This document shows, in pieces, positions 30,211 to 55,238 of a stretch of DNA of 64,000 nucleotides (position 1 is its first letter; the number at the start of each line of letters is the position of its first letter). Both the position numbers and the translations under genes were made by a program. Below the pieces are notes generated by a model that was not told the DNA's origin, ran no database searches, and was given only the letters and a program-made list of their open reading frames with translations. Source of the stretch: Betaproteobacteria bacterium (GTDB taxonomy: Bacteria; Bacillota; SHA-98; UBA4971); the NCBI GenBank assembly GCA_050260395.1, contig JBLNCC010000124.1:5997-69996 (forward strand). The letters are read 5' to 3'.

Positions 30211-30771
30211 TCAGTCTGCCGAATCCCCTGAGTGAACCTCTCCGTCCTGGTCCCGCGCCTTCATCCTGGCGGCCGCGTCCTCTATTGCGGAGATGATCTG
30301 GTGATACCCCGTGCATCTGCAGAGGTTGCCCGAAATGGCGCGGGCGATCTCCTCCCTCGTGGGCTCGGGATTCTCGCGAAGGAGCGCGGCTGCCGCCATA
30401 AGCATCCCCGGCGTGCAGAACCCGCACTGCACCGCGGCGTGCTCGACGAAGGCTTCCTGGAGCGGGTGAAGCCTGCCGTCCCTCGCGAGCCCCTCCACGG
30501 TCTCGACTTCGCGCCCTTCCACCTGAAGAGCCGGAACGAGGCAGGAGTTCGCGGGCTTTCCATCGAGAAGCACCGTGCAAGCACCGCACTCACCGATCCC
30601 GCACCCTTCCTTGGTACCGGTAAGCCGCAGGCGCTCGCGGAGCACGTCTATGAGCCTGTCCTCCGGCGAAACCTCGACCTCGACCGCCCGGCCATTAACC
30701 CTGAACGATACGGTCGCGTTCGTCCCCGGTTCCACTTTCCTCACTCCACGTTCACCCCCAAAGCCTGCCAT
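30211..30771 (-). CDS. xanthine dehydrogenase-family [2Fe-2S] small subunit (CoxS/XdhC-type)
   Basis: GCGIGECGACTV plant-type cluster plus a second CxxC...C cluster. Confidence 0.8.
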   Translation of the reverse strand: MAGFGGERGVRKVEPGTNATVSFRVNGRAVEVEVSPEDRLIDVLRERLRLTGTKEGCGIGECGACTVLLDGKPANSCLVPALQVEGREVETVEGLARDGRLHPLQEAFVEHAAVQCGFCTPGMLMAAAALLRENPEPTREEIARAISGNLCRCTGYHQIISAIEDAAARMKARDQDGEVHSGDSAD

Positions 30772-31628
30772 ATGGCGCGCCTAGCAACAGCCTCAAGGGC
30801 GGGCTTCTTGTAGTCGGTGGACCAACGCACCCCCGTCCTCCTCACCATTTCCTGCGCGACTTCCCGCGCTGCGGCGGCGACGACGGCGTGGTCGGGGATG
30901 CTGCCCACCAAAATCTCCTCAGCCGACGAAACCCGCGCAGGCATCGGCAGGCATGCCCCGGGAACGATCGCGGCCCGCACCACGCGTCCGGCCTCATCGC
31001 GTTCGATGACCGCAGCGCAGCTCAAGCGCGCGATCGCTAGGGCCTCCCGGCGCCCTAGCTTCACGAAGGCACACCCGCACGCCGGGGGGAGCGCGTCGAA
31101 ATACACGTTCACGAGAACCTCCCCCGGCACAGCGCGGTTCTTGTAGGGCCCATCAAATACGTCTGTGATGAGGACGTCGCGAGTGCTTCCGACGTCCGAA
31201 AGCCGAACCCTCGCGGAAAGCGCCACGAGCGCAGGGATGGTGTCGGCCGCCGGCGAGGCGTTCATTATGTTCCCGCCGATCGTCCCGCGCGCGCGGACCT
31301 GCGGCGAACCCACGCTCGCGCATGCTTCCGCGAGAAGCCGCGCCCCCTTCCTGACGATAGGGTTTCGGGCTATCTCCTCGTGCACCGTGAGCGCTCCGAT
31401 CGTGATGGTGCCGGCGCCGGTGCATACGCCCGAAAGCCCCCGAATGCGCGAGACATCCACGAGCCACCGCAGGTCACTTCGGCTCCCGTGCCGGGCCTGC
31501 CGCCTGAGCTGGACCAGGACGTCCGTGCCACCCGCGACGGCCACGGCCTGCCCAGCATGTTCCCGCAGGAATCCGCTGGCCTCCTCCAAGGTCTCCGGCA
31601 CCACGTAACCGAGTTTCAGGAGGCTCAT
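30741..31628 (-). CDS. xanthine dehydrogenase-family FAD-binding subunit (CoxM/XdhB-type)
   Basis: FAD_binding_5 fold: AGGTDVLVQL, GTIGGNI. Confidence 0.75.
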   Translation of the reverse strand: MSLLKLGYVVPETLEEASGFLREHAGQAVAVAGGTDVLVQLRRQARHGSRSDLRWLVDVSRIRGLSGVCTGAGTITIGALTVHEEIARNPIVRKGARLLAEACASVGSPQVRARGTIGGNIMNASPAADTIPALVALSARVRLSDVGSTRDVLITDVFDGPYKNRAVPGEVLVNVYFDALPPACGCAFVKLGRREALAIARLSCAAVIERDEAGRVVRAAIVPGACLPMPARVSSAEEILVGSIPDHAVVAAAAREVAQEMVRRTGVRWSTDYKKPALEAVARRAIWQALGVNVE

Positions 31629-33994
31629 GACATCTCACTTCCCCTCTTGCCGCGCGCGGCCTTGAGCGATCGCCCCAGCAGCACTCTCTCGAGGTCCAAC
31701 GGAAGCTCCCGCACTCTCCTGCCCGTCGCATGCGCCACCGCGTTCGCAATGGCCGGCGCGAGAAGCTCGCAGGTAGGCTCCCCGATGGTCTTCGCGCCGT
31801 ACGGGCCATACGAATCCGGGTTTTCCACCACGATCGGGATGACCTCTGGCACATCCACGGACGTGGCGATGAGGTACTCGTCGAAGTTCTGGGTCCTCGT
31901 GACGCCCCTCGACATTTCGACCTCCTCCAGGAGGCCGTATCCCATTCCCATGGCCACGCCGCCGTATATCTGTCCCTCCACGGTCGCGGGGTTGATGGCT
32001 CTGCCAACGTCGTGCGCGGCGGCCACCTTCAGCACTTTGACCCTGCCCGTCTCGGTGTCCACCTCGACCTCAGCTGCCTGGCAACCATACACGTACGTGA
32101 AGTAGGCCCTCCCTTGGCCGTGCTCCTCGTCCCACGAGACCTTCGGGCCCTTATACCAGCCGAAGGCCGCCATGAGCTCCCCGCGGTTGTATGCGGCCTG
32201 CGCAACCTCGCCAAAGCTCAAGCCCCGCGCGGGGTCGTCGGCGACGAATATCCTGCCTCCCGAAGACCTAAGCGCGTCGGAGGACGTTCCGAGCATCTCT
32301 CCCGCCACGCCCAGGAGCGTTTCGCGGACCTTCCGGGCGGCGTCGCGCACCGCAGACCCGCCCATGACGGTGCTGCGCGACGCCACCGTCGGGCCGCCGT
32401 CCGGGATGAGCGACGTATCGGTGTCCATGAACACCACGTCCTCCAGGTCGCACCCGAGCTCCTCCGCGGCGATCTGGCTGAAGATCGTCCGGAGCCCCTG
32501 GCCGTTCTCGGCTAAGCCTGCATACACGTATACGCTGCCGTCCTGCTGCACCGAGACGATGGCCCCCGTCGCATCAACGCCCTCCCCACCCAAGCTGACG
32601 CCGCGGTAGCTCACGGCAAGCCCGACCCCGCGGACCTTCTTCGCCCCTTCCCGCCGCGCCGCCTCAGCATATGCCCGCCTTTTCTCGCGGTACCCGATGG
32701 CCTCCGCGGCCTTTTGCATCACCTCCACAAGGCTCACCGCGTGGTCGTCGAGCGTCTGGCCGGTGGCCGTGACCGACCCTTGCCGGAAGCCGTTCTTCAG
32801 GCGCAGGTCCAGCGGATCCATGTTGAGCTCGGCGGCAAGCTCGTCCATCAAGGACTCGTGAGCGAAGATGATCTGCGGGCTTCCGAACCCCCTCATGGCG
32901 CCCGTGTACGTATTGTTCGTGTATACGCCGTACACATCTGTCTTGACGTTAGGGACCTCGTAAGGCCCAGTCGCCTGCACCACCGAGCGCCACGTCACGA
33001 ACGGCGTCATCGAGGCGTAGGCCCCTCCGTCTGCCAGGATGCGTATCTCCATGGCAAGGAGCTTGCCGTCCCTCGTAGCCCCGACCTTGTACCTGAGCAC
33101 GTATGGGTGTCGCTTGTATCCCTCGACGATGGACTCCTCGCGGGTGTTCACCATCTTCACGGGCCGTCCCGTCTTGAGGGCCGCCAGCGCTGCCCGCGCG
33201 CACATGCACGACATAACGTCGTCCTTGCCTCCGAACGACCCTCCCATCGCGCACTGAACGATCCGAACCCTGTTCAGGCTCACCCCGAGGACGTGCGCCA
33301 CGACGCGCCTCGCGGTGAAAGGGTTCTGGATCGACCCATATACCGTGACGGATCCTTCGCCCGGGTTCGGGACCGCCACCGCGGCCTCGGGCTCAATGTA
33401 CGCGTGCTCGATGAACTGGGTGCGGTACTCGCGCTCGATGACGACGTCTGACGCGGCGAACCCGGCGTCCACGTCCCCTTTGCGGACTACGTGGTGGTTT
33501 ACGATGTTGCCAGGCGCGTCGTCGTGTAGGATCGGTGCGCCCTCCGCCATGGCTTCTTCCGGCGAAAACACGGCGGGAAGCTCCTGGTACTCGACGCGCA
33601 CGAGCTCGCAAGCCCGCTCGGCCGCCTCCACGGTGGCCGCCACGGCCATTGCCACGCCATCGCCCAAATAACGCGTCTTGTCGAAGGCGAACACGGGCAT
33701 ATCCCGCCGCACCGGTCCGAAGGTCTTGGCACCAGGGATGTCCTCGTGAGTGATGACAGCAGCGACTCCCGGGACTCTCGATGCCTCGCTTGTGTCGATT
33801 CGGACGATCCTCGCGTGGGGGAACCTCGCCCGCAGCACACGTGCGTAAAGCATGCCGTCGAAGTACAGATCCGCCGCGAATTTCGCCCTGCCGGTCACCT
33901 TCTCCACCGCGTCCACACGCCTCGCCCGGTGGCGCACTATGCTGAATTCATCCTGCAGGCCGTCCCTGGCGGCCGGGTCTCCAGCATTCCCCAC
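31625..33994 (-). CDS. xanthine dehydrogenase-family molybdopterin-binding large subunit
   Basis: 789 aa. VDAVEKVTGRAKF N-terminus, GGGFGGK, Mo-pterin binding domains. Confidence 0.8.
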   Translation of the reverse strand: MGNAGDPAARDGLQDEFSIVRHRARRVDAVEKVTGRAKFAADLYFDGMLYARVLRARFPHARIVRIDTSEASRVPGVAAVITHEDIPGAKTFGPVRRDMPVFAFDKTRYLGDGVAMAVAATVEAAERACELVRVEYQELPAVFSPEEAMAEGAPILHDDAPGNIVNHHVVRKGDVDAGFAASDVVIEREYRTQFIEHAYIEPEAAVAVPNPGEGSVTVYGSIQNPFTARRVVAHVLGVSLNRVRIVQCAMGGSFGGKDDVMSCMCARAALAALKTGRPVKMVNTREESIVEGYKRHPYVLRYKVGATRDGKLLAMEIRILADGGAYASMTPFVTWRSVVQATGPYEVPNVKTDVYGVYTNNTYTGAMRGFGSPQIIFAHESLMDELAAELNMDPLDLRLKNGFRQGSVTATGQTLDDHAVSLVEVMQKAAEAIGYREKRRAYAEAARREGAKKVRGVGLAVSYRGVSLGGEGVDATGAIVSVQQDGSVYVYAGLAENGQGLRTIFSQIAAEELGCDLEDVVFMDTDTSLIPDGGPTVASRSTVMGGSAVRDAARKVRETLLGVAGEMLGTSSDALRSSGGRIFVADDPARGLSFGEVAQAAYNRGELMAAFGWYKGPKVSWDEEHGQGRAYFTYVYGCQAAEVEVDTETGRVKVLKVAAAHDVGRAINPATVEGQIYGGVAMGMGYGLLEEVEMSRGVTRTQNFDEYLIATSVDVPEVIPIVVENPDSYGPYGAKTIGEPTCELLAPAIANAVAHATGRRVRELPLDLERVLLGRSLKAARGKRGSEMS

Positions 33995-34070
33995 GTGCCT
34001 CGAGCCCCCTTTCCATTTCCAGCGCCATGTGCCGACCTCCCGCCATGCGCCGGCGCCGCGTTGTGCGCCG

Positions 34071-36431
34071 TCACGCGTCTCGGGCCCCTGCGGCCTTCCC
34101 GTCCCGTTTCTTGAGAGCCATATACACCCTCTCCGCGGTGGCCGGTATTTGTGTTACCCATATACCGGTAGCATCGTGGACGGCGTTTGTGATGGCAGGG
34201 GTGATGGGCACACACACCGCCTCCCCGATTCCCTTGGCCCCGAAGGGCCCAGATGGCTCAAGTTCCTCGACGATTATGGTCTCTATGTCCGGCGCGTCCA
34301 GGGAGGTCGGGATTATGTACGTCGAGAAATCAGGCGTCTTCGTGATCCCCCGTTCGATGACGGTATCCTCCATCAAAGCGTATCCCATCCCCATCACCAC
34401 GCCGCCCTCGGACTGCGCCTCGATGCCTGCGGGGTTTATGGCCTTGCCTGGATCTGGGATAGACACGGCCCGGAGCACCTCGACCTCGCCGGTGAGGGTA
34501 TTCACCTCTACAAGCGCAACCTGAGTGATGTAAGAGTAAATGAGATGCGGCAGGCCGAAATGCCCCTCGACACCCTTGTCGGCGACCGGCCAGATGAAGT
34601 CTCCTTCGGTTTTGGGCCTCCTGCCCTTGTCCTCCGCGAGTTGCGCGATGTCTCGGAACGAAAGGAAGCCAGCAGCAGACACGCCTTCCTGCGGTCGGCG
34701 CGGTTTGGCCCGCACGCCTCCGCGCTCGAAAGCGATGTCGTCGCGCGGCACGCCCAGCTCCTCCGCGGCCACGTCCGCGATGGCCTCACGCATCCTGGCG
34801 GCCGCGCACCGGATGGCGTTCCCGCCGGTGTACACCGAGCGAGACGCAGTGGACGTGCCGGAGTCCATGGTGCGCCCTGAATCCCCCGACACCACCACGA
34901 TGTCTCGGACGGAACACCCGAGGCTATCCGCGGCCATTTGGGCGAAGGCCGTGGTGTTGCCCTGGCCGATCTCGGGGCAGCTCACCCCCACAGCAAACCG
35001 TCCATCCGGCAGAAGCTCGATGGTGGCCGCACCGTAGTCAGGAAGCCCCAAGCCCAGCCCGCACCCGTGAAGCTCGGTCGCAAGCCCCACACCTCGCTTC
35101 TTGTAAGGGGCCGAAGGCTTTGCTTTCAATTCTTCGCGCCGCGCCCAGAGCTCGCACCTGGACGCAGCCTCGAGTGTGGCCGCCGCACCAACCGATGCCG
35201 TCATCGTATGCCCGAGAGCCGCCACATCTCCGCGGCGCAAAGCGTTCTTGAGTCGGAACTCGAGCCTGTCGAAGCCGAGGCGTTCGGCGATCATGTCTAC
35301 CTGCGTCTCCAGCGCGAACGTCACTTGGTTCGCGCCGAACCCTCGAAACGCTCCAGCGAGGCCGTTATTGGTATACACGCAGAATCCCTCCAGCCTCACG
35401 TTGGGCATGCGGTAGGGTCCGCATGAGTGCTCGATGGCAAGGTTTACGACGGGGCCACCAAGCGAGGCGTACGCGCCCGTGTCGGCGACCACGCGCACCT
35501 CGTTCGCAAGGAGCGTGCCATCCGCGGCGGCCGCGGTCTTCATGCGGATCTTCATGGGATGCCGTTTCATCCCAGCAATGACCGACTCTTCCCGCGAAAG
35601 CACGATCTTCACGGGACGCCCCGTCCGGAGCGCAAGGAGCGCGAGGTATATCTGGACCGTTATTTCGTCCTTGCCCCCGAACGCCCCGCCGGCAGGCGTC
35701 GATACGACGCGGATCTTCCTGGGGTTCATGCCGAGGGCGCGCGCTATCTGGAGCTGGTCCCTAAAGGGATGCTGGCTTCCGCACCAGACAGTGATGTTGC
35801 CCTCCTCGTCCAGAGCGGCGACGCCGCTCTCGGTCTCCATGAAGGCGTGCATTTGCCTGGGCGTGTAGTAGGTGTTCTCGACCACCACCGCGGCCTCGCG
35901 GAACGCCGCGTCCACGTCTCCCCTCTCCACCTTGATATGATGGTGGATGTTCCCGCTGGCGTGAACCTTCGGCGCGGACTCCAGCATGGCTTCCTCCGGA
36001 TCGTCCACGACGGGAAGGGGCTCGTACTCGACGTCGATGGCCCGCAGAGCCTCGCTCGCCTTTTCTTTCGAGACCGCGGCCACCAGCGCGACCGCGTCAC
36101 CCATGTAGCGCACCTTGTCAAAACAGAGAACGGGCTGGTCGGGAACAACTATGCCGAAGCCATTGAGGCCGGGCACGTCTTTGTGGGTCAGCACGGCCAC
36201 CACACCGTCCATGGCTTCGGCTTTCGAGGTATCTATCTTTTTGATAAGAGCGTGTGGGTACGCGCTCCGCAGGACAGCTCCCCAGAGCATGCCCGGAAAC
36301 GAGAGATCGGACATGAACTTGAGCTTCCCAGTCACCTTCTCCACCGCGTCGACCCGGGAAACCCGGGCCCCAACCCACCTCGGCTCGCTCAAACGCGCTC
36401 CCTCCTCCCCACCAACACGCATCTTTCGCAC
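34071..36431 (-). CDS. second xanthine dehydrogenase-family molybdopterin-binding large subunit
   Basis: 786 aa. VDAVEKVTGKLKF, GGAFGGK, GIGQG. A paralog of the 31625..33994 gene. Confidence 0.8.
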   Translation of the reverse strand: MRKMRVGGEEGARLSEPRWVGARVSRVDAVEKVTGKLKFMSDLSFPGMLWGAVLRSAYPHALIKKIDTSKAEAMDGVVAVLTHKDVPGLNGFGIVVPDQPVLCFDKVRYMGDAVALVAAVSKEKASEALRAIDVEYEPLPVVDDPEEAMLESAPKVHASGNIHHHIKVERGDVDAAFREAAVVVENTYYTPRQMHAFMETESGVAALDEEGNITVWCGSQHPFRDQLQIARALGMNPRKIRVVSTPAGGAFGGKDEITVQIYLALLALRTGRPVKIVLSREESVIAGMKRHPMKIRMKTAAAADGTLLANEVRVVADTGAYASLGGPVVNLAIEHSCGPYRMPNVRLEGFCVYTNNGLAGAFRGFGANQVTFALETQVDMIAERLGFDRLEFRLKNALRRGDVAALGHTMTASVGAAATLEAASRCELWARREELKAKPSAPYKKRGVGLATELHGCGLGLGLPDYGAATIELLPDGRFAVGVSCPEIGQGNTTAFAQMAADSLGCSVRDIVVVSGDSGRTMDSGTSTASRSVYTGGNAIRCAAARMREAIADVAAEELGVPRDDIAFERGGVRAKPRRPQEGVSAAGFLSFRDIAQLAEDKGRRPKTEGDFIWPVADKGVEGHFGLPHLIYSYITQVALVEVNTLTGEVEVLRAVSIPDPGKAINPAGIEAQSEGGVVMGMGYALMEDTVIERGITKTPDFSTYIIPTSLDAPDIETIIVEELEPSGPFGAKGIGEAVCVPITPAITNAVHDATGIWVTQIPATAERVYMALKKRDGKAAGARDA

Positions 36432-36477
36432 ACGTACTACGCCCCGCGGCGCTGACGCTCGGCCAAATCTTGCGCGC

Positions 36478-36705
36478 TCACCCGCCCCCCACCGGGGTTA
36501 GAATGTGCACGTTCGCGCCGTCCGTGAGCACGGTGTCCTCGTCCGCCCGCCGTCCGTTCACAAGGACGATGATGTACACCCTGTCCTCTATCTTGAGGCG
36601 GTCAAAGAGGTCGGAGAGCTTCGCACCCTCCTCGAATTCCATCTGGAACTTGTCCTCTTTCGCGTACTTGCGCATGGTCCCGAACAGGACAACGTTGACC
36701 TTCAT
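36478..36705 (-). CDS. MoaD/ThiS-like ubiquitin-fold sulfur-carrier protein (C-terminal GG)
   Basis: 75 aa ending ...ILTPVGGG. Confidence 0.6.
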   Translation of the reverse strand: MKVNVVLFGTMRKYAKEDKFQMEFEEGAKLSDLFDRLKIEDRVYIIVLVNGRRADEDTVLTDGANVHILTPVGGG

Positions 36706-37640
36706 GCCTGCCGAACCTCCCCGGCGTCGTCGCCCTCAGCGATGAGGCCTAATAGACCTTCATAGAGAAGGTTACACGCCATCTCCTGGCGGTAAGCCAG
36801 AGATCCCCTTATGTCGGTTATGGGCATCACGTCGCGGAACGCGAGGCGCGAGATATACCTCGCAGCAGCTGCATCAAGCTTCTTTCCGGCCAGCGCCTTC
36901 TCAACCGTGCGCGCCCTCACGACCGTGGGCGCGACCGATCCGAAAGCGACGCGCGAGTCGTCGAACGTCGTGGAATCCAAACGCCGCGCGACAAAGGCCA
37001 CGCTCACCACGGATATGGCGAGCGCCCCTCTCTGACCCAGCTTGCGGAAGAACGACACATACCCCTGCCCAAGCGCGCGGAACCTCACTCCGAGGACCAG
37101 CTCGTCCGGGGCCAGCACCGACTTCTTCGGCCCCGCGAAGAACGATTCCACCCCAATGGTCCGAACGCCCCCGGGACCCCTTACATCTACCGACGCCTCC
37201 AGCGTGAAGAGCGGCGGTATCACGTCTCCCGCCGGGGAGGCCGTGCACAGGTTACCGCCGATGGTCCCTCTTGCCCTTATTTGGGGCGAGCCCACGTGGG
37301 CGCACGCGTCAGCGAGCAACGGAGCGGCCGCCCTCACAATAGGGGACGACGCAACGTCGGCATGGGTGGTGAGTGCGCCGACCCACACCACGCCACCACG
37401 GACCGCTGCTCCGGCGGGCTTGTCCTCGCACGGCGCGGCTGCGCCATCCTCAACGCGCACCCCGCGGAGCTCCTCGAGGCGGCTGATATCCACCAGGACC
37501 GCCGGGGCACGCTTCTCCTCCTTCATCTCGACGACGATGTCGGTCCCCCCGGCTATGATCCGCGCCTCGGGCCCCCACCTGGCGAGGGCCTCGAGAGCTT
37601 CATCCACGCTTTCAGGGACCGCGACGCTAAATGGCTTCAC
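36702..37640 (-). CDS. xanthine dehydrogenase-family FAD-binding subunit (second copy)
   Basis: AGGTDIVVEM, GTIGGNL. 4-bp overlap with the moaD-like gene. Confidence 0.75.
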   Translation of the reverse strand: MKPFSVAVPESVDEALEALARWGPEARIIAGGTDIVVEMKEEKRAPAVLVDISRLEELRGVRVEDGAAAPCEDKPAGAAVRGGVVWVGALTTHADVASSPIVRAAAPLLADACAHVGSPQIRARGTIGGNLCTASPAGDVIPPLFTLEASVDVRGPGGVRTIGVESFFAGPKKSVLAPDELVLGVRFRALGQGYVSFFRKLGQRGALAISVVSVAFVARRLDSTTFDDSRVAFGSVAPTVVRARTVEKALAGKKLDAAAARYISRLAFRDVMPITDIRGSLAYRQEMACNLLYEGLLGLIAEGDDAGEVRQA

Positions 37641-38842
37641 ACCGCTCCCACCTTTGGCTTAAGCTGTATGCACTCGTAAACCGGGCATACCGTGGCGCAC
37701 ATGCCGCAGCCCTTGCACTTGTTCTCGTCTACCCTGGGCAGACGGTTGGAGTCGAGCTCGATGGCTTGGTGCCCGCCGTCCCTGCAAGCGATGTAGCAGA
37801 GGTCGTCCTTGATACACATTTCGTGATTGATCGTGGCAACCACTTTGTGCTTGCGCGAGAGCCGCGAGTGTTCAACGATGTATGGGAGGGATTTGCCAAC
37901 AAGCTCGCGAACGGAGCTCATGCCCTTTTCCTCCAGGTAAACATCGAGGCCGTCGACAAGGTCCTCGATGATCCTGAAGCCGTGCCTCATCACAGCCGTG
38001 CAGAGCTGGATGTTGGTGGCACCTACCAAGAGGAATTCCACAGCGTCTCTCCATGTGCTGATGCCGCCCACCGCAGCGATGGGGATGTCGACGGCCTTAG
38101 CGATCTCGGCCACGCACCGGAGGGCGACGGGCTTGATCGCAGGTCCGGAATAGCCACCAAAAGTTGAATAGCCGCCCACGTTTGGATAGGGAACGAACGT
38201 GTCGAGATCGATCCCGATGAGGCTCTTCAGCGTGTTGATGGCGCAGACCCCGTCAGCCCCCGACCTTTTCACGGCACGAGCTGCCGCGGTGATGTCTGCT
38301 ATCTGAGGGGTCAGCTTGATGACGACCGGGACGCGCTTCGCGGCCTCTTTCACCCACCGTGCAGTGCGCTCCGTGAACTCCGGGTCCTGGCCGATGGTGG
38401 AGCCCATACCCCTCTCTGGCATGCCGTGCGGGCATGAGAAGCTGCACTCAATCAGGTCCACGCCGGCCGCTTCCAGCCTTCGCACGAGTTCCTGCCAGTC
38501 TTCCTTTTTCGCGCCCATGATGCTCGCACCGACCACCCTGTCGGGGTATTCTTTCTTGAGAGCCCTCACGTCCTCCTCAACCTGATCGATGTGGCGCTCG
38601 GAGATGAGGTCGATGTTCTCGAGCCCCATGAGCTTCTTCTCCTCGTAATCGAGCCCCGCCATCATCGGGTACACGAGCTCGACAACCTCGGTTTCGACCG
38701 AGGTGGTCTTGAGGATCGCGCCGCCCCAACCGGCCTCGAACGCGCGCGCGACCAGCTCCGCGCTGTCCGTAGGCGGTGCGGCCGCAAGCGTGAACGGATT
38801 TGGAAATCTCACCCCACAAAACTCGATGGATAGGTCTGCCAA
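37637..38842 (-). CDS. dihydroorotate/dihydropyrimidine dehydrogenase family protein (PreA-like) with C-terminal 2x[4Fe-4S] ferredoxin domain
   Basis: DHOD/DPD TIM-barrel (GADGVCAINT) plus C-terminal CxxCxxCxxxCP x2. Confidence 0.75.
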   Translation of the reverse strand: MADLSIEFCGVRFPNPFTLAAAPPTDSAELVARAFEAGWGGAILKTTSVETEVVELVYPMMAGLDYEEKKLMGLENIDLISERHIDQVEEDVRALKKEYPDRVVGASIMGAKKEDWQELVRRLEAAGVDLIECSFSCPHGMPERGMGSTIGQDPEFTERTARWVKEAAKRVPVVIKLTPQIADITAAARAVKRSGADGVCAINTLKSLIGIDLDTFVPYPNVGGYSTFGGYSGPAIKPVALRCVAEIAKAVDIPIAAVGGISTWRDAVEFLLVGATNIQLCTAVMRHGFRIIEDLVDGLDVYLEEKGMSSVRELVGKSLPYIVEHSRLSRKHKVVATINHEMCIKDDLCYIACRDGGHQAIELDSNRLPRVDENKCKGCGMCATVCPVYECIQLKPKVGAV

Positions 38843-38934
38843 CTCCGGTCCCTCCCGTGTGCCAGAATGTGTGCGTCACCTCTCACAGCCGCTCTTCCTC
38901 TCCTGAGTGGAGCGCCACAGGTCCCCGCCGTTCC

Positions 38935-40569
38935 TCAGCGAGAGAGATCTCCCCGCGACAGATGCGAGCCTACACCCTGACCAGGCTGACCAGGCTCCGG
39001 CCCGCGCCCAGGGATCGCATCTGACGCAAGGCTGACCTTGCACCGCTTCCAGCTGCGGTTCGGAAGATAGGCATCGGGATCAAGCAGGATGCACCTAACC
39101 GGATGTTTAGTGCATATCATGAGGACCTGGTCCCGGCCGGTGAGGGTGACCTTCTCGCGCGTCTCCCACTCACCGCCCGCGAGAAGCACGTCAGCCTGGA
39201 CGGGACCGACCGCGTCGCCCGTGTTCACAAGCGAGAATTTCGTCACAAAACCTCCCCCAGGCTTCGGAGAGCACCGCGCACCGCGGATCTCGTACGCAAA
39301 ACTCGCGGTCGTGCCGAGCCATTGCTTGATGAGACCATCCACAGGTTTGCCCGACACCCTCTCCGCGATCTTTACGAACTCCGCGAGACCGGACGGCTTC
39401 GCCCTGTACATCGCCACGTGCCGCCTGAGTGTTTCGAAAAAGGCCTCGCTTCCGAGCGTGTGGTGAACGAGCCTCAACACCAGGGCTGACCTGATACAAA
39501 CGTGCCTCGGCGCGTCGAGCACGCGGCTCCTCGCCCACGACAGCACGCTTTCCTCGCCTCCCGATCCGACAGCGGAGTCAGCCGCGTACCTGTCGATCTC
39601 CTCATGGATGAGCGCAGCGTGTGCCTCATCCCCGAGAACGCGCCCGACGGTCTCGTACGCCATCGCCCGCGCCAGCGCCTCGTGGAACCATGTATCGCCG
39701 AACCCGACAGAGATCGGGCTGCCCCACCAGATATGCGCTGTTTCGTGGGCAAGAGCCGCGACAAGCCGCACGAGGTGCTCATCCCCTGGGTACTGGCGCC
39801 TGAGCACCACGGCAAAACGCCGGGTTTCCGGCTCACCAAGCATCGATATGTACGCGTCGATGACCCCGCGGAAAAGCTCCATGACCTCGGGAGCCTGTTC
39901 CGTGAGCCGAGGGCCTAGGTAAAGGTCGAGTTGTAGGCCTTTATGCGTCGCACGCTCCAGTGTGAATCTCCCGGCCGTAAGCGCAAGCCCGGAAAGGGGC
40001 TCCCGCGTCTCCCAGACGTACACGGCCCGGCCCTCGGTCTGCGACGACGAGACGAGATCCCCATCGGTTACCCCGACCATCCCTGGGAACGTCGCGCACG
40101 ACACCCTCGCCGTGAACGAATCGAACCCCGCCCCGACTGGATACCATGCTGACCTCCGCGAGAGGCGCAGGCCGCCCTCTTCTATGCGCGCCCACCTGCC
40201 GCCCGCCGGCCGGCCGCCGTATATGAAGGTAAGTCGCGCTTCCCGTCCCTCCTCGAGAGGCTCCAGCAGATAGACCCATACAGCCTTCAGCCCAGGCGCG
40301 TCCGCGAGCTCCGTTTCGCGCGTCTCCACGCGCTCGCCGTCCATGACCACAGCGCTCACGGCAAGGCCTTTGTTCAGCACGAAACAGTGCTTCGTCACGC
40401 CGGGCGCGAGCGCCTTCAGGACGAGGACAGCAGTGGCCTCGAGCTTTCCTTGTTCGACGTCGGTCCACACAGAGATGTCGTAGCGCGTGACCGTTGCTTC
40501 GTCGCCCGAGCGGGCGAGTGAAGAAAAGAGATGCGTTCGTTTTTGCCTGGCCACCCAGCCGATGCCCAT
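38935..40569 (-). CDS. M1-family (gluzincin) metallopeptidase-like protein
   Basis: HETAHIWWG followed by E 18 residues after the second His (HExxH-X18-E). Confidence 0.55.
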   Translation of the reverse strand: MGIGWVARQKRTHLFSSLARSGDEATVTRYDISVWTDVEQGKLEATAVLVLKALAPGVTKHCFVLNKGLAVSAVVMDGERVETRETELADAPGLKAVWVYLLEPLEEGREARLTFIYGGRPAGGRWARIEEGGLRLSRRSAWYPVGAGFDSFTARVSCATFPGMVGVTDGDLVSSSQTEGRAVYVWETREPLSGLALTAGRFTLERATHKGLQLDLYLGPRLTEQAPEVMELFRGVIDAYISMLGEPETRRFAVVLRRQYPGDEHLVRLVAALAHETAHIWWGSPISVGFGDTWFHEALARAMAYETVGRVLGDEAHAALIHEEIDRYAADSAVGSGGEESVLSWARSRVLDAPRHVCIRSALVLRLVHHTLGSEAFFETLRRHVAMYRAKPSGLAEFVKIAERVSGKPVDGLIKQWLGTTASFAYEIRGARCSPKPGGGFVTKFSLVNTGDAVGPVQADVLLAGGEWETREKVTLTGRDQVLMICTKHPVRCILLDPDAYLPNRSWKRCKVSLASDAIPGRGPEPGQPGQGVGSHLSRGDLSR

Positions 40570-40607
40570 CGCCTGAACCTCACCTCCGAGTTCCGTCGGG
40601 ATCCCGC

Positions 40608-41951
40608 TTACCTTAGGTAACCATCGATGACCTCAGCCGCACGCTTCCCCTCGGCCACAGCGCGCACGACAGTGGCGCCGCCGTTCACAGCGTCGCCCCC
40701 GGCGAACACCCCTTCGACCGACGTCATCCGCGTTTCGTTCCCTACCATGATGACGCCGGCCCCCTCAACGGCAAGCCCGCTGAAAAGCTCAGCGAGCCCC
40801 GGCCACGGGGCTTGGCCAGCCGCCACGATGGCGGTAGGTACCTCGATCATATGCTCAGTCCCAGGGATCATTTCTGGCCTTCTCCGCCCGCTCGAGTCAG
40901 GCTCACCCAGGCGCGTGCGGACACACTCGATTCCCGCGAGACGTCCGTCCCGGCCGATGAACCTCACGGGGCTCGTAAGGAACTCGAACCTCACGCCTTC
41001 CGCAACCGCGAATTCATACTCCCTTTTCCAGGCGGGCATTTCCTCACGTGAACGCCGGTACAGCACCACGACCTCCGACGCGCCGCAGCGCAACGCCGAG
41101 CACGCCGCGTCCATCGCCACGTTCCCACCGCCAATGACCGCCACTTTTCCAACAAGGCTCGGGCAGTCTCCGGTGGCCGTCCTCTGCAGAAACTCGCCGG
41201 CCGGCAGAACGCCAGCGAGGTCTTCTCCCGGAATCCCGAGCAACGACTGGTAGCCCAGGCCGGGAGCGAGGAAAACCGCGTGGTACGACCCGCGGATCTC
41301 GGCTGCCGACGCGTCCTTGCCCACGCAAATCCCAGGTTTCACCTCTATGGAAGGTGATGCGAGCACGGCGACTATCTCGGCTTCGGCCACCGCGAGCGGG
41401 AGCCTGTACCGGGGTATCCCGCGGACGAGGAGCCCACCCGGTTTCTGCGCGCTCTCGTAAACCGTCACCGCGTGACCGCGTCGTGCGAGCTCGTGGGCGC
41501 ACGCGAGGCCCGCAGGACCCGACCCGATCACCGCCACCCTCCTACCGGTTGGCCCGCCCGGCCCCGGCGGCTTGATCCCTCGCTTCATCTCCTCGTCTGC
41601 GACAAACCGCTGGAGCGCAGCTATTGCTATCGGTTCGGAAAGGTTCGTGCTGGAACACCTTTTCTCGCAGAGCTCCTCAGCAGGGCATACCCTCGCGCAG
41701 ACGCCCGCGAACACGTTGGCCTCGCGTATGAGCCGCGCCGCACCGATGAAGTTCTTCGTCTTCAGCCTCCGGATGAAGCCCGGCACATCCACGCCGGCCG
41801 GGCACCCCGCGACACACGGGGCGTCGTGACAGAAAAGGCACCTTGAGGCCTCGGCGAGAGCCTCGTGAATCGGAAGCCCGCCCTGGACCTCCTCGAAGCC
41901 CGTCCTCCGCGCCTCTGGTGAAAGCTCCCTCATCCTGGCTCTAGCACCCAT
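40608..41951 (-). CDS. GltD/PreT-like NAD(P)H-dependent Fe-S flavoprotein oxidoreductase (glutamate synthase small-chain family; YgfT/YgfK-type)
   Basis: 4Fe-4S cysteines (CLFCHDAPC...CP), two Rossmann GxGxxG motifs (GSGPAG, GGGNVA). Start set at an internal Met because 41952-42185 is low-complexity and contains a repeat element. Confidence 0.7.
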   Translation of the reverse strand: MGARARMRELSPEARRTGFEEVQGGLPIHEALAEASRCLFCHDAPCVAGCPAGVDVPGFIRRLKTKNFIGAARLIREANVFAGVCARVCPAEELCEKRCSSTNLSEPIAIAALQRFVADEEMKRGIKPPGPGGPTGRRVAVIGSGPAGLACAHELARRGHAVTVYESAQKPGGLLVRGIPRYRLPLAVAEAEIVAVLASPSIEVKPGICVGKDASAAEIRGSYHAVFLAPGLGYQSLLGIPGEDLAGVLPAGEFLQRTATGDCPSLVGKVAVIGGGNVAMDAACSALRCGASEVVVLYRRSREEMPAWKREYEFAVAEGVRFEFLTSPVRFIGRDGRLAGIECVRTRLGEPDSSGRRRPEMIPGTEHMIEVPTAIVAAGQAPWPGLAELFSGLAVEGAGVIMVGNETRMTSVEGVFAGGDAVNGGATVVRAVAEGKRAAEVIDGYLR

Positions 41952-42060
41952 CCGGATGACCGCCTCCTCGCCAAAACTCCGCAGCCCGGCCCAGACCAGA
42001 CCGATACCTACCGAGTAGATCCCTACCTTACGAGACGAGCTCGCGCTGCTTTGCACCACA

Positions 42061-42178
42061 CAAGTCCTGCCTAGTGTTGCCGGTGGTTGTGCGACGGGGC
42101 GTTGAGAATTCGGCCGTCCCGCGCGCCGAATTCGAACGAGGCGCGCCGCAAGCGCGCCGTCCCCGGAGCGCAACACCG
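42061..42178. repeat. nested palindrome whose 15-bp perfect inverted arms carry the core of the 82-nt leader element (copy C)
   Basis: CTAGTGTTGCCGGTG (42061-42075) is the exact reverse complement of CACCGGCAACACTAG (42164-42178). The right arm GCGCCGTCCCCGgagcGCAACACCGGCAAC matches the A/B core. Inner palindromes are GAATTCGGC...GCCGAATTC and GGCGCGCcgcaaGCGCGCC. Confidence 0.65.
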
Positions 42179-42254
42179 GCAACACTAGCTCTCTCAGAAA
42201 GAGAAACGAAGACTCATAGCCCCATGCTCAGCCTACCGGGGCGAGCGAGCGTGC

Positions 42255-49631: not shown

Positions 49632-50174
49632 TCAGAACTCCGGCGGCGTGATCGCGGAGATGAAAACGAGGTCCTTGTTGCCGACGCTCGTGATCTTGTG
49701 CGGGATAGCGCAATAGTAGTAGATGCTGTCGCCTTCCTCAAGGTGGTAGCGCTCATCCCCCACCTGTATATCCATGGCGCCCTGTAGCACCACGGTACAT
49801 TCCTCGCCAGGATGCGCCAGGGGCTCCTCGCAAGTTGAAGTGCCGGGCTTGAGCGTCGCCATCATGACCTCCATCTGTCTGTTAAGGTCGGGCGACAGGA
49901 GCTCGAACGCCAAGTGGGACCGGGGAAACTTCAGTGTCTTCCGGCTGTCCTTCCTCACCACGGGGCTATAACCGTCCGAATCGAGGAGAAAGTAGAATAT
50001 GGGCACATCGAGTGCCTCAGCGATCTTGCGCAGCGACGTAATGGACGGCTCAGCCACGTCTCTTTCGACCTGGCTCAAGAAACTCGCTGTGAGCCCCGTG
50101 AGCGCGGCGAGTTCGCTCAGGCTCTTCCCCTGTTCCCGGCGCTTTTCGCGGATCTTTTTACCGAGCAACATCAT
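49632..50174 (-). CDS. XRE-family HTH transcriptional regulator with C-terminal cupin sensor domain
   Basis: HTH_3 (KSLSELAALTGLTASFLSQVERD) plus a cupin beta-barrel. Confidence 0.75.
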   Translation of the reverse strand: MMLLGKKIREKRREQGKSLSELAALTGLTASFLSQVERDVAEPSITSLRKIAEALDVPIFYFLLDSDGYSPVVRKDSRKTLKFPRSHLAFELLSPDLNRQMEVMMATLKPGTSTCEEPLAHPGEECTVVLQGAMDIQVGDERYHLEEGDSIYYYCAIPHKITSVGNKDLVFISAITPPEF

Positions 50175-51526
50175 TCCCCCTGCGTCAGAAGGTCGCCTGC
50201 GCGCGCCCCGAGCACCCGCTCCAACTCTTCGATGGCCGGACCGACCTCTATGGGAGGGGGCGCAGCCCGCTCAGCGTTGGCGATGTCTTTGAGCCCGTTG
50301 CCGGTGGCGATGATGACAACCGTCTCCTCACGGTCTATGACGCCGCCCTCGAAAGCGGCGATAAGGCCCGCGAGGCTAGCGGCTCCGGCTGGCTCGCTGA
50401 ACACGCCGGTTGTCGACCCGAGCAACCTCATGGCGCGGAGGATCTCGTCATCCGTCACGGCAACCATGTTACCGCCGGACTCGCGCACGGCGTTCAGGGC
50501 CTTCGTCGGGTTGCGAGGCACCCCCACCGCTATGCTATCGGCCAGGGTGTTCTCGGGCCACGGCCGGAAGCGGTCGGCGCCCGACTTGAACGCCTCCACA
50601 ATGGGCTGGCATCCGGCGGCTTGGACGCCGAGGATGCGCGGAATTCGCGTTATGAGGCCGGTCCTCCAAAAGTCGTGGAAACCTTTGTACACACCGGCTA
50701 TGGTGCAGCCGTCGCCGACCGAGACCACCACCCAGTCGGGGACTCGCCACCCGAGCTGCTCGCATATCTCGAAGCTCACGGTCTTCTTGCCTTCGACGAG
50801 GTATGGGTTGATTGCAGCGTTGCGGTTGTACCAGCCCCACTTGTCAATGGCGGCCGCCGAGAGCAAGAAGGCGTCGTGGTAGGAGCCGTCTACGGAGACG
50901 ACCGAGGCACCGTACATGAGCAGCTGCATGAGTTTGCCGCGGGGAGCCCGCCTGGGCACGAAGATGCACGACCGCAGGCCCATCGACGCGGCGCACCCTG
51001 CGAGCGACGAGGCGGCGTTGCCCGTGGACGCGCAAGCGACGACGCGCCGGCCGGCCGCCTTCGCGCGGACGGCCGCGATGGCCGACGCCCGGTCCTTGAG
51101 CGACGCCGTCGGGTTCACCCCTTCGTCTTTCACGAAGACGGAGCGCGCCCCGAGGGCGCGGGCAAGGCGATGCGCGTCATAGAGCGGGGTCCACCCGATC
51201 CGAAGCGGCGGCCTCTCCCAGGCTGGGTCAACGGGCAGGAACGCCGCGTAACGCCACATGGAATCCTCGCCGGCGGCAAAGACCTCGCGGCCAGCGTCGC
51301 ACCCTTTGTCTCCGCCTATCCTGCGCGCGATGGCGTCGTAATCGTACACCACGTCCAGAATGCCCTGGTTGCCGCAGGATGGGCATGTGAGCGCCCAGCC
51401 TCCGCAGCTCTCGTGCTCCACGACCGCGCCACACGTCGTGCACTGAAGATGCTTCACATGGTCCAACTGCGGTCCCCCTGGCATCTCCCCGGAATGGCTC
51501 AAGCCGCTCCCTGCATGAATCGTCAC
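50171..51526 (-). CDS. threonine-synthase-like PLP-dependent enzyme with N-terminal Zn-ribbon
   Basis: NPTASLKDRAS lysine motif and CTTCG...CPSCG ribbon. Confidence 0.6.
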   Translation of the reverse strand: MTIHAGSGLSHSGEMPGGPQLDHVKHLQCTTCGAVVEHESCGGWALTCPSCGNQGILDVVYDYDAIARRIGGDKGCDAGREVFAAGEDSMWRYAAFLPVDPAWERPPLRIGWTPLYDAHRLARALGARSVFVKDEGVNPTASLKDRASAIAAVRAKAAGRRVVACASTGNAASSLAGCAASMGLRSCIFVPRRAPRGKLMQLLMYGASVVSVDGSYHDAFLLSAAAIDKWGWYNRNAAINPYLVEGKKTVSFEICEQLGWRVPDWVVVSVGDGCTIAGVYKGFHDFWRTGLITRIPRILGVQAAGCQPIVEAFKSGADRFRPWPENTLADSIAVGVPRNPTKALNAVRESGGNMVAVTDDEILRAMRLLGSTTGVFSEPAGAASLAGLIAAFEGGVIDREETVVIIATGNGLKDIANAERAAPPPIEVGPAIEELERVLGARAGDLLTQGE

Positions 51527-51712: not shown

Positions 51713-53017
51713 GTGGAATGGGGAGTGATACGCATCGTGTCCAGGGAAGGCGGGTGCCGTTTGGATCGCTTCCGCTTGCATCGCTTCGCAACATCCCGCA
51801 CCGTGTTGCTGACCGTTGGCCTGGCTCTGCTCGCGGCAGCCATCGGCGCGCGGATCCTATCTTCGCACCCTGCCACCTCCGGCGGTGGTGTCGTCCTTGC
51901 GCCGCGCGGCCGGGGCGACAGCGGCGCGCGCGTCCAGGTTCACCTCTTCTACAGCTCGGCCTGCCCAAGTTGTGAGATCGCAAGGTTGCAAGTCGCTCGG
52001 CTCGTCGCCCTGAGGCCGCAAGTCTCGGTTGTCGAGCACGACGTCGCGTTCCCCGCAAACCAGGCCTTGCTCCGGGCGTTCTGCTACGCCGCGGGCGTCC
52101 CGGCCGACTCCAGGCGCACTGTGCCCATGGTGTTCCTCGGGCCGCGCTACCTCACCTCACGCGACATCACCCTCGAGCACCTGCTGAGGCTAGTTGACGG
52201 GCACGACCCCCAGGCAGGGTCTCTCGATATCGGAGACGAGGAGATCGAGGCGGCAGAGCGCGCCTTAAGGAGAGAGGGCTCCATGCTGACCGCGGCTATC
52301 GTCGCTGCCGCAGGGTTCGTAGATGGGATCAACCCGTGTGCCTTCGCCATCCTCGTCTTCCTCGTGTCGTATCTGACGTTCGCGGGCAAAGACAGGCTGC
52401 AGATCCTCGCGACTGGCGTTGCGTTCGCAGGAGGGGTCTTCGCGACGTATGTCGCAGCGGGCTTCGGGCTGCTCAGGGTCATGCGCGCCTTCCGGGGCAT
52501 GCCCTTCGTTCACAGGGCGGTGTATTTAGCGGCCGCCGTCATGTGCTTTGCACTAGCGGCCGCGACGATACATGACTTGCTGCAAATGCGCCCGGGGTTT
52601 CCCTCCAACGTGAAGTTGAGGCTCCCCCGCCGCCTCACGAAGTTCGCCCACGCCGCGATCAAGCGTGCGGCATCCTCGCCTCATCTTGGGGCGGCGGCCC
52701 TCCTGACCGGGGCGGTCGTCGCAACCACGGAGTTCGTATGCACCGGCCAGTTGTATTTGCCTACCATCGCATACATGGTGCAGGCAGGTGGCGATTCGGG
52801 ACGACCCGCTGCCATGTTGATCCTGTACAACCTGGCGTTCATAGCGCCGATGCTATGCGCGGTTACCCTCACATATCTCGGCACGACGTCGGAACGCTTG
52901 GCGGCTTTCACGCGACGTCAGGCTACGACAGTGAAGGCTGCCATCGCACTGGTCCTGGTCTGCCTGGGGAGCTATCTCGGCCTGGAGTTTCTCGGAATGC
53001 TAGGCTTGGGGGCGTAG
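51713..53017 (+). CDS. thioredoxin-like domain fused to CcdA/DsbD-type transmembrane thiol:disulfide electron transporter
   Basis: Periplasmic-type CPSC thioredoxin-fold segment followed by 6-8 TM helices with the GINPCAF and second Cys motif of the CcdA/DsbD core. Confidence 0.65.
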   Translation: MEWGVIRIVSREGGCRLDRFRLHRFATSRTVLLTVGLALLAAAIGARILSSHPATSGGGVVLAPRGRGDSGARVQVHLFYSSACPSCEIARLQVARLVALRPQVSVVEHDVAFPANQALLRAFCYAAGVPADSRRTVPMVFLGPRYLTSRDITLEHLLRLVDGHDPQAGSLDIGDEEIEAAERALRREGSMLTAAIVAAAGFVDGINPCAFAILVFLVSYLTFAGKDRLQILATGVAFAGGVFATYVAAGFGLLRVMRAFRGMPFVHRAVYLAAAVMCFALAAATIHDLLQMRPGFPSNVKLRLPRRLTKFAHAAIKRAASSPHLGAAALLTGAVVATTEFVCTGQLYLPTIAYMVQAGGDSGRPAAMLILYNLAFIAPMLCAVTLTYLGTTSERLAAFTRRQATTVKAAIALVLVCLGSYLGLEFLGMLGLGA

Positions 53018-53128: not shown

Positions 53129-54538
53129 TCACGAAGCGGCATCCCCAGCATCCCGCAGCAAAGCCTGCACGGCCAGCGCGCACTCGATGCGCTTCTTCTG
53201 GATCGCGCACGCCACGGGTTCAGGGGTGAGGATATCGCCCGACGAAAAGTAGGCATTTGCGTGGCACCCGCCGCTGCAGATGAACCGCGCCCAGCACTCG
53301 GCGCAGCCGCGCTTCGTGTAGACGTGTGCGCCCCGGAACCTCTCCACGAGCACTTCATCCATTTCGCCCTCGAACACGTCGCCCATGAGGAGCTCGCGTT
53401 GCCCCACGAACTGATGGCATGGGTACACGCTCCCGTCGGGCGCCACAGCGAGATAGTCCACGCCCGAGCCGCAACCCGCGAGGCGTCGCGCAAGGCACGG
53501 GCCGCCCTCAAGATCCACGTTGAAATGGTAAAACGAGAACCCCTTTCCCTCGGCGTGTCGCTCAAGAAAGAGCGTGGCCAGGCGCTCGTATTCCCGGCCG
53601 ATGGCGTCGAGGTCGCCCGCGCGGATGCCGTAAGACGCATCCCGCCCCCCGACCACGGGCTCCACGGATATGCTCCCGCAACCGAGGTCCGCGAGGTGCA
53701 TGACGTCGGACGCGAAGTCTAGGTTCGCCCTGGTGTAGGTGCCACGGACGAAGTACGACTCGGGCGCGCGGCTTCTCACGAACCGTTGCACCTTGGGCGC
53801 GACCACATCGTAGCTCCCGCCACCTCCCGGCGCAACTCGCATCCTGTCGTGCGTCTCTTTGCGCCCGTCGAGGCTGAGCACTACGAGCATGTCATTATCG
53901 GTGAGGAACCGGGCCACGTCCTCATCGAGCAGAACCGCGTTGGTGGTCAAGGTGAAATCAATGTGCTTCCCGAGGCGCTCTGCCCTCGCCCGCCCATACT
54001 CGACGGTGGACTTCACCACACCGAAGTTGAGGAGCGGCTCGCCGCCGAAGAAATCCACGTTGAGGTTGCGGCGCTTGCCCGACCGCGCGAGGAGGAAATC
54101 TATCGCCGCCCGAGCCACCCGCTCAGGCATAAGCTCCCTCGTCATGCCGAAGTTTCCGGTCTTGCCGAAGCAGTATCGGCATCTGAGGTTACAGTCATGC
54201 GCCACGTGGAGGCAAAGGGCCTTGACGAGCACCTCGCCCGAGGGCTCGTACGGCTCGTCTGGGGCGAAAGGAGGAGAGAGCCTTCCAGATGAGACCATCT
54301 CGTCGATCTCGTCGTAAGCTTCGGCGACTGCCTCCTCACCGTGAACCGGCCCCAAGCTGCGGACGACCTCGTCTCTCGACCCAGGGCCCCCGTACGCAGC
54401 GGCCACATCGCAGGCCACGCTGTCGAGCTCGTGGAGGCCGCCTGTCTTCACATCGAGCAGAAGGTTCACCCCAAGCACCGAGAACACGTGCCAGTTGGCT
54501 TCCTTGCGGGCTTCGCGCGAGCCTCCTGCGCCGGGCAT
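53129..54538 (-). CDS. SCIFF (six-cysteines-in-forty-five) radical SAM/SPASM thioether-forming maturase (CteB-like ranthipeptide synthase)
   Basis: CNLRCRYCFG radical SAM motif, C-terminal SPASM CAECWARFICSGGCHANA, N-terminal WHVFSVLGVNLLLDVKTGGLHELD peptide-binding segment. A cognate SCIFF peptide gene lies 150 nt upstream. Start moved to the internal Met; ORF is open back to 54766. Confidence 0.8.
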   Translation of the reverse strand: MPGAGGSREARKEANWHVFSVLGVNLLLDVKTGGLHELDSVACDVAAAYGGPGSRDEVVRSLGPVHGEEAVAEAYDEIDEMVSSGRLSPPFAPDEPYEPSGEVLVKALCLHVAHDCNLRCRYCFGKTGNFGMTRELMPERVARAAIDFLLARSGKRRNLNVDFFGGEPLLNFGVVKSTVEYGRARAERLGKHIDFTLTTNAVLLDEDVARFLTDNDMLVVLSLDGRKETHDRMRVAPGGGGSYDVVAPKVQRFVRSRAPESYFVRGTYTRANLDFASDVMHLADLGCGSISVEPVVGGRDASYGIRAGDLDAIGREYERLATLFLERHAEGKGFSFYHFNVDLEGGPCLARRLAGCGSGVDYLAVAPDGSVYPCHQFVGQRELLMGDVFEGEMDEVLVERFRGAHVYTKRGCAECWARFICSGGCHANAYFSSGDILTPEPVACAIQKKRIECALAVQALLRDAGDAAS

Positions 54539-54687
54539 CCCGGGCCAAGCCCCATCGACATCCCCGTTCCCACGGACCCTGGAGCTTTCGGCCTGCCGGG
54601 CGGCCTCCAATCGCCGCGTCGCGTCTGCGCCCTGCGCCCCCGCGCTGCCCGGCCGGGCGGCGGGCTCTCGCTCGGGCCTTCGGAGGC

Positions 54688-54858
54688 TCACTTCTCGCGC
54701 TGCCGGCATACCTGATTGCCGACGGTGCACGAAGTCTTGCACGCCGACTGGCACGAGGCCTGGCATTCCTTGCAGCCGCCCACGCCGAGGCCGGCCTTCG
54801 TCGAGCCCTCGCTTACCGTGCGAATGTGCTTCGTCGCGATCTTCCGCGCCACAACCAC
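54688..54858 (-). CDS. SCIFF ranthipeptide precursor (six Cys in the C-terminal ~25 aa)
   Basis: Translation ...HIRTVSEGSTKAGLGVGGCKECQASCQSACKTSCTVGNQVCRQREK* has the invariant SCIFF core GGCxECQxSCQSACKTSCTVGNQ. GTG start sits 5 nt after AAAGGAG. Below the 60-aa ORF-track cutoff. Confidence 0.8.
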   Translation of the reverse strand: MVVARKIATKHIRTVSEGSTKAGLGVGGCKECQASCQSACKTSCTVGNQVCRQREK

Positions 54859-55238
54859 CACGTCTCCTTTATGTAAATCTCTTGCGTCAGCACCCAGGTC
54901 TCGCCGGGCCCGGATACCTGTGGCAGACCCGGGGCGTTCCAGGGAACATTATAGCATCAGCTTCCTCCACTGCGAAAGCCACCAGCCAGAATTTCCGCCG
55001 GAATCACCCAAACAGGCGTTGCCTGCTTCGTGTCCCGAGGCTATAATTATCCCGAAGTCGTTGCAGCGGGAGGTTCCCGGCCGCGTTTGCGGTCACCGGC
55101 ATGGGCTCCGCCCCGTCCCTCGAGCCGTGCGCCGATGCGGGGCGCGGCGATGCTTGTTGCCCGTGGCACGCCGTTGCCCGCAAGACCACGTTACAGGAGC
55201 AGTCGCAGGCCAGGCGACCTCCAGGGAGGAAAGCGTTC

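Follow-up and report, generated by a model that had tools for sequence, protein, structure and literature searches.

A SCIFF ranthipeptide operon, very probably of the standard scfA-scfB type, from an uncultured high-GC Bacillota bacterium labelled as a betaproteobacterium

The window studied here, the whole stretch of 64,000 nucleotides to which all positions refer, very probably carries a standard scfA-scfB (SCIFF) ranthipeptide operon belonging to an uncultured high-GC Bacillota bacterium. The SCIFF/maturase pair is genuine, and it is an ordinary copy of the known clostridia-type two-gene system. Its precursor gene, scfA (54688..54852, minus strand), scored 71.9 bits with TIGR03973 (cutoff 50; E = 2.9e-20) and 73.3 bits with PF13165 (cutoff 27; E = 1.4e-20), the full profile being covered. 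The maturase gene, scfB (53129..54538, minus strand), scored 547 bits with TIGR03974 (cutoff 425; E = 3.3e-164). Considering that all of these values lie past the curated cutoffs, the family matches of both genes are far beyond chance. A sequence-only reading of the same DNA had proposed a SCIFF precursor ORF with its maturase and had named the two TIGRFAM searches as the check; both scores exceed the trusted cutoffs, and the sequence at hand contains neither a frameshift nor a stop inside the peptide ORF.

That reading had also described the peptide gene as unannotated, a description contradicted by the public record, although the gene may still be missing from the ORF track that was used. 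In an exact-sequence look-up at NCBI, three proteins of the window were found as consecutive entries (MGE5594297.1-MGE5594299.1) on one 85,197-bp contig. The 54-aa peptide is MGE5594299.1, 'six-cysteine ranthipeptide SCIFF'; the 469-aa enzyme is MGE5594298.1, 'thioether cross-link-forming SCIFF peptide maturase'; and a neighbour of 434 aa is MGE5594297.1, 'cytochrome c biogenesis protein CcdA'. Thus the system is a known one, and both genes already bear their correct names in the public record of the identical sequence. SCIFF and ScfB have been described since 2011, structural and biochemical work is available for CteB and Tte1186, and the NCBI pipeline detects the system automatically.

We scanned species-representative genomes and collected 25 related loci, of which 23 contained clear scfB homologues. 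A SCIFF ORF was located directly upstream of the maturase gene in 22 of the 22 related loci for which upstream DNA was available. The closest relatives, with 60-93% ScfB identity, were uncultured MAGs labelled 'Bacillota bacterium' or 'Clostridia bacterium', and the nearest of all (L026) served as the reference for pairwise difference counts. Among 14 loci of the clade, the variable columns of the peptide core were distributed over the three codon positions as 0/0/19, with identical amino acids, and those of the whole peptide ORF as 15/14/47. The maturase core differed from L026 at 20/15/115 positions. Based on these codon-position patterns, we take both scfA and scfB to be functional, and purifying selection on them is strong.

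The cysteine-rich core of the precursor, CKECQASCQSACKTSCTVGNQVC (54706..54774, minus strand), corresponds to residues 27-49 of the 54-aa peptide and places cysteines at positions 27, 30, 34, 38, 42, and 49. Both the spacing CX2CX3CX3CX3CX6C and the invariant SCQSACKTSCTV.NQ.C block were present, and the corresponding regular expression matched nowhere else in the window. In an alignment of 18 SCIFF sequences, all invariant columns (H, I, G, C, E, C, SCQSACKTSCTV, N, Q, and C) were found in the window peptide. The leader motif KHI was also kept, H and I being invariant in this alignment and K occurring in at least 90% of the sequences. In the clade of the window this motif is not N-terminal, since seven extra residues precede it; the precursor therefore reads, in order, as the extension MARKIAT, the leader KHIRTVS..., and the six-cysteine core. 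The extension is fixed in length and variable in sequence within the clade. Two further features distinguish the clade from canonical SCIFF peptides, namely GGCKEC in place of GGCGEC and a basic C-terminal tail (RQREK here). As judged from the aligned sequences, these departures from canonical SCIFF are small and clade-specific. A comparison of the peptide with PDB sequences gave no meaningful match.

The maturase, 469 aa when read from ATG 54538, had CteB (5WGG/5WHY) as its top match of solved structure (E = 6.2e-142), with residues 15-459 of ScfB colinear with residues 6-450 of CteB. In Pfam it matched Radical_SAM (PF04055), Fer4_12 (PF13353), and SPASM (PF13186). The radical SAM motif CNLRCRYC (54170..54193, minus strand) has the form CX3CX2C, with C116, C120, and C123, and is identical in the CteB alignment. 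The SPASM domain (53180..53497, minus strand) scored above cutoff with both PF13186 (25 bits) and TIGR04085 (65.4 bits). It contains the motifs CX2CX5CX3C and GX4C with flanking cysteines, and its auxiliary Fe-S cluster cysteines C348, C356, C374, C412, C415, C421, C425, C444, and C453 are aligned with those of CteB. A putative leader-binding (RRE-like) region was placed at residues ~15-100 (54239..54496, minus strand), which are colinear with CteB residues 6-100 and are matched by TIGR03974 from profile position 2. A Pfam scan of ScfB yielded no PqqD/RRE match; an RRE function of this N-terminal region may be suggested by analogy with CteB. The CteB-like N-terminal peptide-binding segment claimed earlier agrees with the alignment, which is colinear from CteB residue 6 onward.

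The mechanically called maturase ORF, 53129..54766 on the minus strand, would encode 545 aa, and the sequence-only reading had considered it over-extended by 76 codons. Our best estimate is the same; ATG 54538 corresponds to M77 of that ORF, and the 469-aa product at NCBI is identical. First of all, the HMM and CteB alignments start only at residue 92-93 of the 545-aa ORF. Moreover, the first 25 codons of this ORF overlap scfA in another frame, and distant relatives begin with ML.EANWH(V/I)F, just 7 nt past the SCIFF stop. The codon pattern of the intervening DNA is flat as well. The start of scfA's partner lies on the same strand 149 nt downstream of the SCIFF stop, which ends at 54688, and this GC-rich spacer (54539..54687, minus strand; 77% GC) differed from L026 at 42 of its 149 positions (28%), distributed as 13/15/14 over the codon positions without periodicity. 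The stretch M77-W92 likewise showed no codon periodicity against L026 (6/3/5). Taken together with the 469-aa product at NCBI, these observations indicate that the called ORF of 545 aa starts too far upstream. The GC content of the window (60-66%) accounts for the long spurious ORFs that occur in its every frame.

Between lineages and close relatives the spacer varies in length from 22 to 233 nt, by means of 9- and 12-nt tandem units; the spacer loci compared were window 54539..54687 (minus strand), L001:5800-5944, and L003:5952-5979. The 469-aa form of ScfB has the N-terminus MPGAGGSR, and the spacer, when read in the scfB frame, encodes LEAAR, QAESSR, and PGSAGAQGADATR. A different start also had to be weighed, namely GTG 54691..54689, which overlaps the scfA stop (GTGA). 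Translation would then proceed by termination-reinitiation and would give a ScfB of 520 aa with a hypervariable, low-complexity extension of ~50 residues. The expanded spacer types of 38, 128/137, 191, and 233 nt are all 2 mod 3, and in them the scfB frame has no stops and is aligned with the GTGA overlap; stops number 0-4 in the other frames. The window, L026, and L001 lack the ancestral ATG five codons ahead of N-W-H, gene callers gave 520-aa versions in near relatives, and the NCBI assembly of L027 (38-nt type) has the gene beginning at the GTGA overlap. Nevertheless, the spacer has no codon-position bias (13/15/14) and little amino-acid conservation, slippage of the 9- and 12-nt tandem units accounts for its changes in length, and chance alone often leaves frames open at 77% GC. 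In addition, an island round ATG 54538 (GCCCGGGATGCCC) is kept between the window and L026 amid diverged flanks, and NCBI gives 469 aa for the exact sequence. We consider the 520-aa start unlikely, though with a real claim to be weighed, and ATG 54538 (469 aa) remains the best estimate. That the spacer lengthens in steps of 3n was also considered as proof of coding, an argument weakened by the flat codon-position pattern and the 9/12-nt tandem units.

A broader form of the same idea is that the high-GC subclade uses GTGA termination-reinitiation in general, and that its ScfB proteins carry a disordered, hypervariable N-terminal extension of ~15 to 80 residues ahead of the leader-binding domain. 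We hold this to be a tentative and rather doubtful proposal. If it were true, GTGA coupling would mean stoichiometric synthesis of precursor and maturase, a kind of coupling that has not been described for SCIFF systems. Two other roles for the junction were rejected. An RNA attenuator or stabiliser in the spacer was suggested by a predicted hairpin, GCCUCCGA...UUGGAGGC, of -50 kcal/mol, yet its z-score was 0.28 against shuffled sequence. This hairpin was absent from the MFE structure of L026, and z ~-2.3 was reached in the L002/L003 type only. A programmed -1 frameshift fusing SCIFF to ScfB (the scfB frame being -1 relative to that of scfA) was discarded since, by inspection, no slippery heptamer precedes the stop.

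The start of the precursor itself could be drawn at three in-frame GTG codons, 54861, 54858, and 54852, all of which lie downstream of the Shine-Dalgarno sequence AAAGGAG (54864..54870, minus strand; AAGGAG invariant in 13 of 13 aligned lineages). The longest form of the ORF (54688..54861, minus strand) has 57 codons from the first GTG and the translation MVVVARKIATKHIRTVSEGSTKAGLGVGGCKECQASCQSACKTSCTVGNQVCRQREK, as the sequence-only reading wrote it; the span which that reading gave, 54688..54858, is the 56-codon variant. It had proposed an ORF of 54-56 codons with AAAGGAG and a GTG start; the ribosome-binding site, the GTG, and the 54-codon form stand, while the start at 54858 does not, most relatives having GTA or ATA there. 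A precursor of 56 or 57 aa seems to us quite improbable. The gene caller did take the 56-aa form in L026 and L029, and the first GTG (54861) is kept in all lineages. Against this, GTG 54861 lies just 2 nt past GGAG, and codon 54858 is GTA or ATA, hence no start codon, in most relatives. Codon 54852, in contrast, is [A/G]TG in 14 of 14 loci (ATG in L010, L011, and L013), and the 54-aa form is the one carried by NCBI. Counted from 54852, the ORF has exactly 54 codons in each of the 14 clade loci. According to this comparison of sequences, GTG 54852 (54 codons plus stop) appears to be the conserved start of the peptide.

The host label deserves separate attention. In NCBI, the record of identical proteins (those of 4408..7161, 51713..53017, 53129..54538, and 54688..54852) is labelled 'Betaproteobacteria bacterium', and a naive reading would accordingly place SCIFF outside Bacillota. 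On the strength of the bracketed '[Betaproteobacteria bacterium]' in these protein names, the SCIFF pair might be thought to reside truly in a betaproteobacterium that had received this Clostridia hallmark by horizontal transfer. We regard this as extremely unlikely, considering that MAGs labelled Bacillota or Clostridia share the gene order of the 12 kb round the locus, at 80-95% amino-acid identity. Furthermore, among named sequences, the closest relatives of a UPF0182 gene at a distance of 48 kb come from Bacillota/Firmicutes MAGs, and the next from Calderihabitans, Syntrophothermus, and Peptococcaceae; the same 90% protein cluster includes a MAG protein from a 'Firmicutes bacterium'; and a sister MAG of the same BioProject is labelled Clostridia. 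The window also contains genes of an anaerobe type, including an [FeFe] hydrogenase, an AOR-like gene, and a PrdR-like σ54 regulator. Therefore, based on the Bacillota synteny, the relatives of the distal gene, and the anaerobe-type gene content, we judged the label to be probably wrong; it would be an error of binning or labelling and no evidence for SCIFF in Proteobacteria. Finally, that the enzyme is an orphan ScfB-related or QhpD/PapB-type maturase with another substrate, the small ORF being incidental, is hardly credible at all: it does match NF040492 (476 bits), TIGR03906 QhpD (272 bits), and NF047865 PapB (259 bits), but these scores are far under the respective cutoffs of 855, 453, and 340 bits while TIGR03974 is over its own, and every relative has, next to the enzyme gene, a true SCIFF gene on which purifying selection is strong.

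With the scfA-scfB operon so defined, candidate expression signals can be assigned upstream of it. A σ70-like promoter was predicted at 54948..54976 (minus strand), with the -35 element TTCGCA (54976..54971), a 17-nt spacer containing TG, and the -10 element TATAAT (54953..54948). In a consensus scan it gave 10 of 12 matches with an extended -10, and two such sites were found in the region versus 0.4 expected. This promoter-like site lies ~90 nt upstream of the precursor, and its -10 block, GATGCTATAATGTT, is common to eight lineages (the window, L026, and L001-L006), so that a promoter role for TTCGCA-17-TATAAT may be inferred. Directly 3' of the -10 box there is a palindrome, GTTCC-CT-GGAAC (GTTCCnnGGAAC; 54936..54947, minus strand), which is kept with small changes in the close clade. 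Its pairs survive through G-C to G-U changes only, without compensatory double changes. It may serve as an operator or form a hairpin at the very beginning of the transcript. As for regulatory RNA in the 5'UTR, RNAalifold gave a weak consensus of -5.3 kcal/mol whose covariation term was positive, and the Rfam scan gave nothing for the 5'UTR at the gathering threshold and one spurious miRNA match only at E<=1. Intrinsic terminators were found neither between scfA and scfB nor after scfB.

The genes on either side of the pair had been described as a divergent UbiA prenyltransferase and a convergent Trx-CcdA fusion. The former was borne out by PF01040 (100 bits); this UbiA-family gene is MenA-like, with scores below the MenA equivalog cutoffs. 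The latter description was accurate in part. The convergent gene (51713..53017, plus strand; 434 aa) encodes a Trx-CcdA-like membrane protein with a CcdA/DsbD-like membrane domain (27% identity, E = 2e-17), both of whose Cys motifs are aligned to a PF02683 protein, whereas the Trx part amounts to CPSC and sub-threshold Pfam matches (E 0.02-0.05). No Pfam or NCBIfam model passed its cutoff on this protein. In all, 47 homologues were found, some distant ones of which carry PF07610 and PF22544, and the protein belongs to a poorly described Trx-CcdA-like family.

Functional links between scfAB and these surroundings were considered and rejected. Across the loci, the UbiA-family gene and the CcdA-like gene both failed to adjoin scfAB consistently. 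The CcdA-like gene is separated from scfB by an MNT/HEPN insertion in L026 and by a gap of ~1 kb in L001-L003, and it is absent from L006-L013. The upstream GntR-ABC-ABC2 genes, a conceivable exporter, are syntenic in L001-L013, but the block includes an amylase-like gene, and its link to scfAB is absent in the canonical Clostridia L014-L023. Since GntR-ABC-ABC2 is part of this longer syntenic block, no export route was identified; dedicated protease, exporter, or processing genes were not evident in the locus. As far as the compared gene orders indicate, the neighbours would reflect general synteny and not a conserved functional link.

Several other features were recorded at or around the locus. 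The insertion in L026 (L026:1988-2736) is a nucleotidyltransferase/HEPN pair resembling an MNT-HEPN toxin-antitoxin system and stands between scfB and the CcdA-like gene, where the window has 111 nt. On the far side of the CcdA-like gene, 49632..51526 (minus strand) encodes a PLP-dependent (PALP) enzyme with an N-terminal, Cys-rich, zinc-ribbon-like segment, which has a 4-nt overlap with a downstream ORF of 180 aa (49632..50174); synteny of this pair extends to L002-L004 and L006. An [FeFe]-hydrogenase group A-like ORF (25027..27144) is preceded, at a distance of ~120 nt, by a purine riboswitch (RF00167, 45.9 bits; 27265..27368, minus strand). The cluster at 21243..42185 contains two pucD-like xanthine dehydrogenase subunits, a GltD/AegA-like oxidoreductase, an amidohydrolase-family deaminase, and an AOR-like gene, and has the look of a locus for anaerobic purine degradation under riboswitch control. 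Three tRNA genes are clustered at 746..1014 (minus strand).

By analogy with the biochemistry of CteB and Tte1186, for which PMC8326336 gives a summary, the following course of maturation may be proposed. The RRE-like N-terminal region of ScfB would bind the leader of the precursor, and the [4Fe-4S] cluster of the CX3CX2C motif would reductively cleave SAM. The resulting 5'-deoxyadenosyl radical would take a hydrogen from the side chain of a core threonine, T43 or T40. Presented at the SPASM auxiliary cluster, C38, the fourth cysteine, would then close a non-alpha (Cγ) thioether ring. In CteA the residues reported in cross-linking are C32, T34, and T37, and the acceptor is disputed between Thr37 and Thr34 (PMC8326336); by position these residues equal C38, T40, and T43 here. 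The least certain step is the last, in which the mature peptide most likely would act as a regulatory or signalling molecule and not as an antibiotic. The earlier statement that the physiological function of the SCIFF pair is unknown is partly outdated in this respect: where PMC8326336 and PMC8102284 cite Chen et al. 2020, a quorum-sensing or regulatory role is given for solventogenic clostridia.

The practical gains from this locus are that the start of the peptide is fixed at 54852, that the 545-aa maturase ORF can be set aside as a high-GC artefact, and that a doubtful taxon label is flagged. Those who study RiPP leader recognition or operon stoichiometry may find interest in the leader extension of this clade and in the spacer built of repeats.

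Among known systems, CteA/CteB of Clostridium (Acetivibrio) thermocellum (5WGG, 5WHY) offers the closest parallel in the points that can be set side by side. It has the same gene order, with the SCIFF precursor directly upstream of the radical SAM/SPASM maturase. CteB is colinear with ScfB over 445 residues with identical CX3CX2C and SPASM cysteine patterns, although the window enzyme has clearly diverged from it in sequence. The cores of CteA and of the window peptide, ...SCQSACKTSCTV.NQ.C, do not differ, and the Cys and Thr residues reported to be cross-linked are among the shared positions. The window precursor differs from CteA in its seven extra N-terminal residues, in a Lys for the Gly of GGC-G-EC, and in its basic RQREK tail. 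The window also has its 149-nt GC-rich, repeat-derived spacer where more remote members of the clade have a short gap. Tte1186a/Tte1186 of Caldanaerobacter subterraneus belongs to the same family (TIGR03973/TIGR03974), the likeness being one of family membership and literature. Tte1186a was the first SCIFF peptide characterised in vitro and is reported to contain a single Cys32-Thr37 thioether (PMC8326336); these two residues correspond to C38 and T43 in the window peptide. QhpD (TIGR03906) and the PapB/freyrasin maturase (NF047865) are related SPASM enzymes that form thioethers with Cβ/Cγ links, and their HMMs match the window enzyme significantly. Nevertheless, the window has neither qhp genes nor a peptide with Cys-X3-Asp repeats, and the substrate encoded is a canonical SCIFF. 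The orphan maturases of NF040492 ('not_ScfB') likewise match over the full length, but the enzyme of the window is no orphan, since a SCIFF gene adjoins its own.
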